In this document: positions 47,827-48,060 of the stretch, piece by piece
How the letters are laid out: each line of letters begins with the position of its first letter
Position numbering within the stretch: the stretch's first letter is position 1
From: Escherichia phage vB_Eco_SLUR25
Sequence record: LT907986.1
DNA length: 58,998 bases
Strand: one strand, 5' to 3'
Position numbers and translations under genes: made by a program
Notes under the pieces: model-generated
What the model saw: only the letters and a program-made list of their open reading frames with translations
Told to the model about the DNA's origin: nothing
Database searches by the model: none

Positions 47827-48060
47827 TCAATAATCAATCACACAGTTTGAAGGTGAACCAATTCGTCGGTATTCATGATCAATCTCATGGCACCATTGCC
47901 CAGTCATTGGAAGCTTTTCGGTATCATAAATTAAAGAACCGTTACCATCACGGTCTAACGGTTTTGGGATAACGCCGGAATTAGGTTTACCAGTATTCAG
48001 ACCGTTACCACATGCAGTAAGGGATAAAGTTAATGCCAGCATAATTAAAGCGCGTTTCAT
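47827..48060 (-). CDS. small outer-membrane lipoprotein, Llp/Cor-like superinfection-exclusion candidate
   Basis: 77 aa; signal peptide MKRALIMLALTLSLTAC with lipobox LTAC; antisense between J-like and tail fibre genes. Confidence 0.5.
   Translation of the reverse strand: MKRALIMLALTLSLTACGNGLNTGKPNSGVIPKPLDRDGNGSLIYDTEKLPMTGQWCHEIDHEYRRIGSPSNCVIDY

Follow-up and report, generated by a model that had tools for sequence, protein, structure and literature searches.

We report that a small antisense gene of Escherichia phage vB_Eco_SLUR25 (record LT907986.1) probably encodes a lipoprotein of the Lpp010 / PHROG 12984 family, predicted to make the infected cell refractory to LamB-dependent phages, the phage itself included. 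The window, by which we mean the whole stretch of DNA that was analysed, is a complete genome of 58,998 bp, 100% identical to Escherichia phage vB_Eco_SLUR63 (LR025196.1), and belongs to Seuratvirus, subfamily Queuovirinae; its nearest relatives are Skure, CAjan, Seurat, slur01 and the BASEL phages GottfriedDienst, WildeMaa and SeppeHuegi. The existing annotation of the window-identical record, SLUR63, describes the open reading frame (ORF) as a 'hypothetical protein', which now becomes a probable LamB-directed exclusion lipoprotein, with LamB predicted as the terminal receptor. The exclusion activity and the dependence on LamB rest on published experiments with homologues; the anatomy of the gene, its homology, the selection acting on it and its linkage to the tail-tip gene J come from the present analysis.

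The finding is correct yet already known in related phages. In 2022 van den Berg et al. remarked of the phages that target LamB, with Bas23 as their example, that they 'likely do have SE lipoproteins' encoded downstream of gpJ, and the same authors asked how such lipoproteins work without allostery (PMC9586334). The Bas23 lipoprotein is identical to that of the window, and the first functional test of the family is the 2025 paper on the mEpimmI phages (PMC11893012). The interest that remains lies in the very narrow, apparently independent origin of the family and in the mechanism by which so small a lipoprotein, of about 60 residues, inactivates a porin with neither a plug domain nor TonB-type allostery. 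Furthermore, the locus neatly illustrates a cassette in which a receptor-binding domain is joined, across a terminator, to its cognate exclusion gene, and which appears to be mobile, as a unit, between virulent and temperate siphoviruses. It also bears on phage cocktails: infection by one LamB phage, or lysogeny with a phage that carries the cassette, may render cells resistant to further LamB phages, lambda among them.

Results and Discussion

Anatomy of the lipoprotein gene

The ORF occupies positions 47827..48060 of the minus strand, including the stop codon, and is read from an ATG start into a protein of 77 amino acids, MKRALIMLALTLSLTACGNGLNTGKPNSGVIPKPLDRDGNGSLIYDTEKLPMTGQWCHEIDHEYRRIGSPSNCVIDY. 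The precursor opens with MKRALIMLALTLSLTAC, followed by GNG... The signal peptide comprises residues 1-16 (MKRALIMLALTLSLTA; 48013..48060, minus strand) and has a basic n-region, MKR, a hydrophobic h-region and the lipobox LTA/C at residues 14-17, where '/' marks the cleavage site; the lipobox ends in Cys17 (codon 48010-48012, minus strand) and the residue at position +2 is Gly. A strict scan for lipoprotein signals, in six frames over all 58,998 bases and for ORFs of at least 40 amino acids, returned the 77-residue ORF as its sole match, against a mean of 0.23 matches per genome in 30 shuffled controls. Both the translation and this genome-wide scan thus bear out the initial annotation, which had described a minus-strand ORF of 77 amino acids with a signal peptide and an LTAC lipobox.

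Between the signal peptide and the conserved mature core lies a Gly/Asn-rich tether of eight residues (47986-48009, minus strand). The core itself, defined by alignment, spans the 52 residues P26-Y77 (residues 26-77; 47830..47985, minus strand) and carries the motifs PNSGV, TEKLPxTGQWC and NC, in that order. Cys17, the predicted site of lipidation, is invariant in 26 homologues, the signal peptide and tether are variable, and none of the homologues in the family alignment has Asp at position +2. Within the core, the invariant columns are P26, N27, S28, G29, V30, G41, L43, T47, E48, G54, Q55, W56, C57, R66, G68, N72 and C73. Besides Cys17, the invariant cysteines are Cys57 and Cys73 of the core, and these two may form a periplasmic disulfide.

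The ORF matches PHROG 12984 ('lipoprotein') from end to end with E = 2e-55. Over the mature core, dN/dS is 0.026-0.055 in comparisons with Seurat, KurtStettler, 9g and EP23, and with KurtStettler the core is 100% identical as protein and 89% identical at the nucleotide level. The ORF is a real gene under strong purifying selection.

Searches with other resources returned little. Scans against Pfam, NCBIfam and PADLOC gave nothing except sub-threshold matches of the signal peptide to LptM. The signal peptide is also the seat of weak matches to spanins (PHROG 'Rz-like spanin', E = 0.006, and tblastn matches, E = 3), all confined to residues 1-33. As these matches and the small size of a lipoprotein destined for the outer membrane might suggest, the ORF could be conceived as an Rz1-like o-spanin, or as another lysis lipoprotein encoded outside the lysis cassette. 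We consider this scarcely credible: the gene lies 18 kb from the lysis cassette, is equipped with a promoter and a terminator of its own and, in other lineages too, is coupled to J, and the protein is not proline-rich, with five prolines in 61 mature residues. The lysis cassette of the phage is recognisable elsewhere in the window, with an endolysin gene that ends at 28600, a holin gene at 28637-28981, an i-spanin gene at 28962-29438 (PHROG 89, E = 7e-11) and, overlapping the latter, a gene for a proline-rich o-spanin at 29296-29601 (PHROG 456, E = 3.5e-14). With this real i-spanin/o-spanin pair in place, the identification of the 77-residue ORF as an o-spanin was rejected.

Flanking genes and transcription signals

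The lipoprotein gene is the sole minus-strand gene between J and the lateral tail fibre gene. The former (44775..47792, plus strand) encodes a J-like central tail fibre or tail-tip protein of 1005 amino acids from its ATG, with matches to the Pfam families Phage_Tail_Tip (E = 7e-44), Ig_J_second and Phage-tail_3; the program that listed the ORFs places its start at a TTG at 44763. Overall, this protein is 68% identical to the J-like tail tip protein of KurtStettler, and its last 125 amino acids (47415..47789, plus strand) constitute, by sequence comparison, the C-terminal receptor-binding domain, of a kind that we call type A. The lateral tail fibre gene (48143..50320, plus strand), which is context and lies outside the cassette, encodes a protein with a phage_tail_N domain (Pfam, E = 1e-22) and a Peptidase_S74 intramolecular chaperone domain. 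The view of the ORF as a lone antisense gene among late genes of the plus strand is therefore upheld, with J upstream and the lateral tail fibre gene downstream, both on the plus strand.

J and the lipoprotein gene converge on a common, bidirectional intrinsic terminator, a hairpin at 47798..47825 (both strands) with a 12-bp stem, five G-C pairs and a 4-nt loop. It begins 5 nt past the stop codon of J and 1 nt past that of the lipoprotein gene, and has U-rich tails on both strands. The hairpin folds with -17.6 kcal/mol on the plus strand (z = -4.4) and -18.2 kcal/mol on the minus strand (z = -5.2), a stability that none of 200 shuffles equalled. The GenBank record of Seurat, which has the same arrangement, labels the gene 'lipoprotein' and notes a 'bidirectional terminator between end of gene and end of apparent moron'. 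In the 5' intergenic region (48061-48142), folding revealed no second terminator and no significant structure (z about +0.3). Of the earlier description of the gene as bracketed by a bidirectional terminator, then, the single terminator at the 3' end stands and the bracketing on the 5' side does not.

Upstream of the ATG, at a distance of 5 nt, is a strong ribosome binding site, AAGGAG (48066..48071, minus strand), which is kept in Seurat, KurtStettler and 9g and is annotated as such in Seurat. Further upstream, a candidate sigma70-like promoter, TTGACT-16 nt-TATATT (48097..48124, minus strand), matches the consensus at 10 of 12 positions; both hexamers are identical in Seurat and KurtStettler and the -35 hexamer is weaker in 9g. 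Four promoter-like sites were found in a region of 900 bp where 2.7 are expected, and the conserved site falls in an intergenic region that is generally conserved; we infer, from sequence, that it may act as the promoter of the lipoprotein gene.

Distribution of the gene and its linkage to J

A tblastn search with the lipoprotein (E <= 10) found 50 phage records, 43 of which cover at least 80% of the protein. The carriers are all close Seuratviruses together with the Nonagvirus 9g, several Dhillonviruses, whose copies are about 72% identical, and, at about 55% identity, four mEpimmI phages that are temperate and non-lambdoid, namely mEp010, mEp013, mEp044 and mEp554. Among the BASEL phages, the protein of WildeMaa is 100% identical to that of the window, those of GottfriedDienst and SeppeHuegi are 97-99% identical and, with KurtStettler included, the range is 87-99%. 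The genome paper of 9g makes no mention of the lipoprotein gene. In total, the family amounts to twenty-nine clusters at 90% identity among 5.8 billion proteins, and a profile search that exhaustively covered 1.84 billion representative proteins gave four matches, with no distant relatives that link the family elsewhere. One of these four lies in a giant adhesin and is probably due to repeats or composition. The distribution is very narrow and the origin of the family apparently independent.

In 29 of 31 viral loci from IMG/VR the gene is convergent with a J-like gene, with 28-39 nt between the two stop codons, and in those 29 the gap always holds a G+C-rich hairpin (-11 to -21 kcal/mol) whose stem sequence varies by lineage. 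The same convergence is seen in mEp010, mEp013, EP23, 9g, KurtStettler and one Salmonella prophage, and the records of mEp010 and mEp013 have rho-independent terminators annotated at the J/lipoprotein junction. Also in IMG/VR, copies of the lipoprotein that are about 95% identical adjoin J proteins that share, in the tail-tip region, only about 47% identity with the J protein of the window, which indicates that the module has moved by horizontal transfer. The cassette thus appears to travel among Seuratvirus, Nonagvirus, Dhillonvirus and mEpimmI phages and prophages.

The type A receptor-binding domain occurs in 31 phage records only, among them the window phage and EP23, and the lipoprotein is present in all 31. 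It is 67-70% identical to the counterparts in Dhillonvirus and only 22-26% identical to a second kind of domain, type B, held by KurtStettler, mEp010 and mEp013. Where the receptor module is different the lipoprotein is missing: VogelGryff, which depends on LptD, is absent from the tblastn matches even at E <= 10. In the Seuratvirus SD04, the closest relative of VogelGryff according to BASEL, J ends just after the 'NNVTVRGTV' junction, and an unrelated antisense ORF of 333 amino acids lies at the position of the lipoprotein gene.

An independent transcription unit with its own promoter and terminator, called an 'apparent moron' in Seurat and present also in prophages, might equally serve the host or some function unrelated to phage receptors, for example as an envelope or fitness factor akin to Bor or by modulating the uptake of maltodextrins, in which case the exclusion reported for Lpp010, tested solely by plasmid overexpression and a spot assay, would be a side effect of overexpression. 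We find this very unlikely. A fitness factor for lysogens would be without a role in the strictly virulent phages of Queuovirinae and Dhillonvirus, in which the core is nevertheless kept identical with a dN/dS of about 0.03, and the strict linkage to receptor-binding domains of the LamB type is what a receptor-directed function predicts. Moreover, the Pfam scan of the ORF revealed no similarity to Bor or to any Pfam family.

LamB as the predicted receptor

The receptors of several relatives have been established by experiment. The BASEL phages GottfriedDienst (Bas21), KurtStettler (Bas22), WildeMaa (Bas23) and SeppeHuegi (Bas24) are listed in the BASEL S5 table as LamB-dependent (Maffei et al. 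2021, PMC8594841); according to the same table, the dependence of KurtStettler on LamB was complemented genetically, and VogelGryff (Bas25) is LptD-dependent. Over its last 125 amino acids, the receptor-binding domain of the window J is 96-99% identical to those of GottfriedDienst, WildeMaa and SeppeHuegi. With a domain nearly identical to those of LamB-dependent Seuratviruses, the window phage is predicted to use LamB as its terminal receptor. It had been suggested that the lipoprotein hints at an outer-membrane protein as the receptor, and the LamB-dependent phages that combine the same lipoprotein with a near-identical J domain lend this suggestion support.

Both types of receptor-binding domain have LamB-dependent representatives. 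The C-terminal domain of lambda J shows no significant similarity to either type A or type B; its alignment is limited to the preceding '...GT.EA..F/VGD' junction (E about 0.01) and does not reach the terminal domain. Although the receptor-binding domains of the window phage and KurtStettler are only about 23% identical, the cores of their lipoproteins are 100% identical. This identity across the divide between the two domain types, together with the block of lambda by Lpp010 (see below), argues that the lipoprotein tracks the receptor, not the receptor-binding domain of the phage, and that it acts on LamB itself or on a component closely tied to LamB.

Exclusion by the homologue Lpp010

The closest protein with a tested function is Lpp010 (mEp010_116, mEp010 gp116), to which the ORF is 55% identical (BLASTP, E = 4e-32) and 73% identical over the mature core. 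Expressed from a Ptac plasmid, Lpp010 excludes the LamB-dependent phages mEp010, mEp044, mEp554 and lambda, in an assay that consists of plasmid overexpression and a spot test; the OmpA-dependent phages mEp021 and mEp515 were reported to be excluded by a different lipoprotein, Lpp021 (PMC11893012). The LamB-dependent phage mEp013 escapes Lpp010, and yet the lipoprotein that mEp013 itself encodes is the same as Lpp010 except for residue 2, within the signal peptide (PMC11893012). The J receptor-binding domains of mEp013 and mEp010 are only 68% identical. The escape of mEp013 means that self-exclusion is not guaranteed for every variant of the receptor-binding domain and that exclusion depends on details of that domain.

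The proposal that a lipoprotein encoded beside the receptor-binding gene blocks the phage's own receptor gains support from these homologues, both through the exclusion by Lpp010 and through the LamB dependence of the carriers. Exclusion could also operate after receptor binding, for example when the tail tip penetrates the outer membrane or when DNA is transferred through the periplasm or the inner membrane, in the manner of Sie or Imm. The authors of the mEpimmI study keep both options open (PMC11893012), and a lipoprotein with Gly at +2 would be expected on the periplasmic face of the outer membrane, a place where it might encounter the ejection machinery. LamB, moreover, has no known allostery by which a periplasmic signal could be relayed to its surface loops (PMC9586334), and Lpp010 stops both lambda and mEp010, whose receptor-binding domains are unrelated in sequence. 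We nonetheless judge a block after binding to be unlikely. The gene is co-inherited with J domains of the LamB type and is missing where the receptor module differs, a linkage for which a generic block has no need; in addition, the phages that Lpp010 was reported to exclude are all LamB-dependent, and that mEp013, with its different J domain, escapes points to the interface between J and LamB.

Proposed mode of action

For the preferred reading, a lipoprotein directed at LamB, we envisage the following course of events. Host RNA polymerase would transcribe the antisense unit from its own sigma70-type promoter and stop at the terminator held in common with J. After export, the precursor would receive its lipid at Cys17 and be processed by signal peptidase II, and the Lol system would, given Gly at +2, sort the lipoprotein to the outer membrane. 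There the 52-residue core, probably closed by a Cys57-Cys73 disulfide and held on its eight-residue tether, would act on the maltoporin LamB such that no productive infection through J-type domains could take place. In a virulent phage the payoff would be twofold, as for Llp of phage T5: superinfection would be prevented, and progeny would not be wasted on LamB carried by cell debris. Direct binding to LamB, the disulfide, the localisation of the protein and the timing of its expression are inferred.

How the action on LamB might be brought about is a separate matter. Llp targets FhuA, a TonB-dependent transporter, through periplasmic allostery; LamB has no known allostery (PMC9586334) and the mechanism of Llp is therefore not simply transferable. 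At odds that fall just short of even, the family, a passive porin without allostery being its target, may disable LamB in a structurally different way from the periplasmic allosteric lock of Llp; it would then be an independently evolved solution and a new small fold that inhibits a porin. Our literature searches turned up no work on the structure or biochemistry of a LamB-directed lipoprotein. An AlphaFold2 model of the ORF, built from an alignment of 26 sequences, has a mean pLDDT of 63.4, too poor to judge the fold, and a Foldseek search with it against the PDB gave nothing at E <= 0.001. As candidate mechanisms, the lipoprotein might plug or cap the LamB trimer from the periplasm, or it might be flipped to the cell surface. 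Should a mechanism different from that of Llp prove to be the true one, it would answer the question posed by van den Berg et al. in 2022 (PMC9586334).

Comparison with other exclusion lipoproteins

The initial annotation had called the gene a candidate of the Llp/Cor type, by analogy with small lipoproteins encoded next to receptor-binding genes. In position and in predicted function the analogy is apt. Like the ORF, Llp of T5 (PDB 8A60, 7QJF) is made as a 77-residue precursor for signal peptidase II with two further cysteines, and its gene adjoins that of the receptor-binding protein, the receptor of which it blocks; the likeness is one of functional analogy. The Cor proteins of T1, phi80, N15 and HK022 are likewise lipoproteins of about 75 amino acids with an exclusion function, and in T1 (ST30) the cor gene lies antisense at the end of the tail-tip/receptor-binding cluster, tail-to-tail with a terminator. 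Cor differs in acting on FhuA-dependent phages.

The analogy does not extend to homology of the mature domains. In BLASTP against T1 Cor and in hhalign against T1 Cor, a Cor profile (15 sequences) and an Llp profile (five sequences), only 19-21 columns of the signal peptide align and no homology of the mature domain is found, and neither phmmer nor hmmsearch gives a match at E <= 10 in the PDB, where Llp is represented by 8a60_B and 7qjf_A. As a positive control, the Cor and Llp profiles, which represent distant relatives (PMC9586334), align with each other over 50 columns, through the mature domain, at 95.6% probability. The cysteines also follow a different pattern, being C16, C26 and C73 in Llp, C17, C25 and C73 in T1 Cor and C17, C57 and C73 in the window family. 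Membership of the Cor or Llp families was rejected on these grounds, an alignment restricted to the signal peptide and a different cysteine pattern, and the neighbouring receptor module is an architectural analogy only. As far as sequence comparison can tell, the ORF is a functional analogue of Cor and Llp and not a demonstrable homologue.

Family membership is instead evident with Lpp010, the 'type-C' lipoprotein of the mEpimmI phages (PMC11893012), to which the ORF is homologous throughout the mature domain and with which it has in common the motifs PNSGV, TEKLPxTGQWC and NC, the lipobox, a residue other than Asp at +2, the two invariant cysteines and convergence with J across a hairpin. The predicted SE lipoproteins of Bas21-24 (PMC8594841, PMC9586334) occupy the same locus, between gpJ and the lateral tail fibre gene that follows it, and present no substantive difference from that of the window. 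Lpp010 differs in its surroundings, in that mEp010 is a temperate, non-lambdoid phage whose J protein of 1707 amino acids bears a type B domain, whereas the window phage is virulent and bears type A; its tether is three residues longer than that of the window lipoprotein and of another sequence.

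Receptor-binding domains accompanying the lipoprotein

The C-terminal ends of J, the tail-tip protein, were compared across window positions 47415-47789 and the corresponding stretches of related phages (L004 4264-4680, L007 2552-2960 and loci L017-L029), which revealed that the same lipoprotein is accompanied by two distantly related types of receptor-binding domain, only 22-26% identical to one another. Type A is found in SLUR63 and EP23, among others, and type B in KurtStettler, mEp010 and mEp013; both end in the motif RG(T/S)GS(W/F), and LamB-dependent members are known in each. 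The LamB-binding end of lambda J bears no resemblance to the J C-termini of either type.

In Aeromonas phage SD04, also a Seuratvirus, the slot of the lipoprotein gene is occupied by an antisense ORF of 333 aa (L005 3911-4912), no ORF for a lipoprotein was found there down to a length of 45 aa, and J stops shortly past the conserved 'NNVTVRGTV' junction. This looks like the exchange of one receptor module for another, with a clean boundary.

Copies and variants of the lipoprotein

Shigella phage EP23 (L008 3986-4228) and vB_EcoS_PNS1 both have the lipoprotein gene, although their GenBank and RefSeq records carry no annotation at the matched position. A divergent subgroup of 72-aa proteins (P0027 and its relatives; loci L012, L013, L044 and L045) is about 54-56% identical and has an atypical signal end, ..IALCC; its genes lack an adjoining J-like gene and are neighboured by small genes of unknown function. 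P0021, a 74-aa variant carried on 29 contigs of E. coli chromosomes, shows full identity over roughly its first 54 residues and diverges completely thereafter; it looks like a frameshifted, decaying copy within prophage remnants.

The family profile also matched nine stretches of P0055, a 4467-aa adhesin with CshA/SdrD repeats (E = 1.6e-7). The match spans profile positions 32-63, the D-x-D-G-x-G-x-L...TEKLP region, and may reflect a common loop motif, or composition alone.

The shared terminator

The terminator common to J and the lipoprotein gene has a 4-nt loop at 47810-47813. Its palindromic stems are identical in SLUR63 and Seurat/slur01 (loci L001, L015 and L016), whereas the loop, read on the lipoprotein strand, is AAAC in the former and GTTT in the latter, an exact inversion; the difference looks like a hairpin-loop inversion.

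Other genes of the window

In the lateral tail fibre (48143-50320, plus strand), the Peptidase_S74 chaperone domain is directly followed, at about residues 625-650, by a short acidic tandem motif, YEDVYEDVYKDIYEDV. Directly 3' of this gene lies that of a 235-aa glycine-rich protein (50580-51287, plus strand), which has a CCC motif and the C-terminal end PTPPTPPTGCC. It has a match to PHROG 9288, a group of unknown function, and none in Pfam.

A strict lipobox scan of the window did not pick up the true o-spanin (29296-29601, plus strand). This protein has an unusual lipobox, M-I-C-A-G-C, with a Cys at -3, followed by PPPPPQ, and its gene, in a different frame, overlaps that of the i-spanin (28962-29438) at the latter's 3' end.
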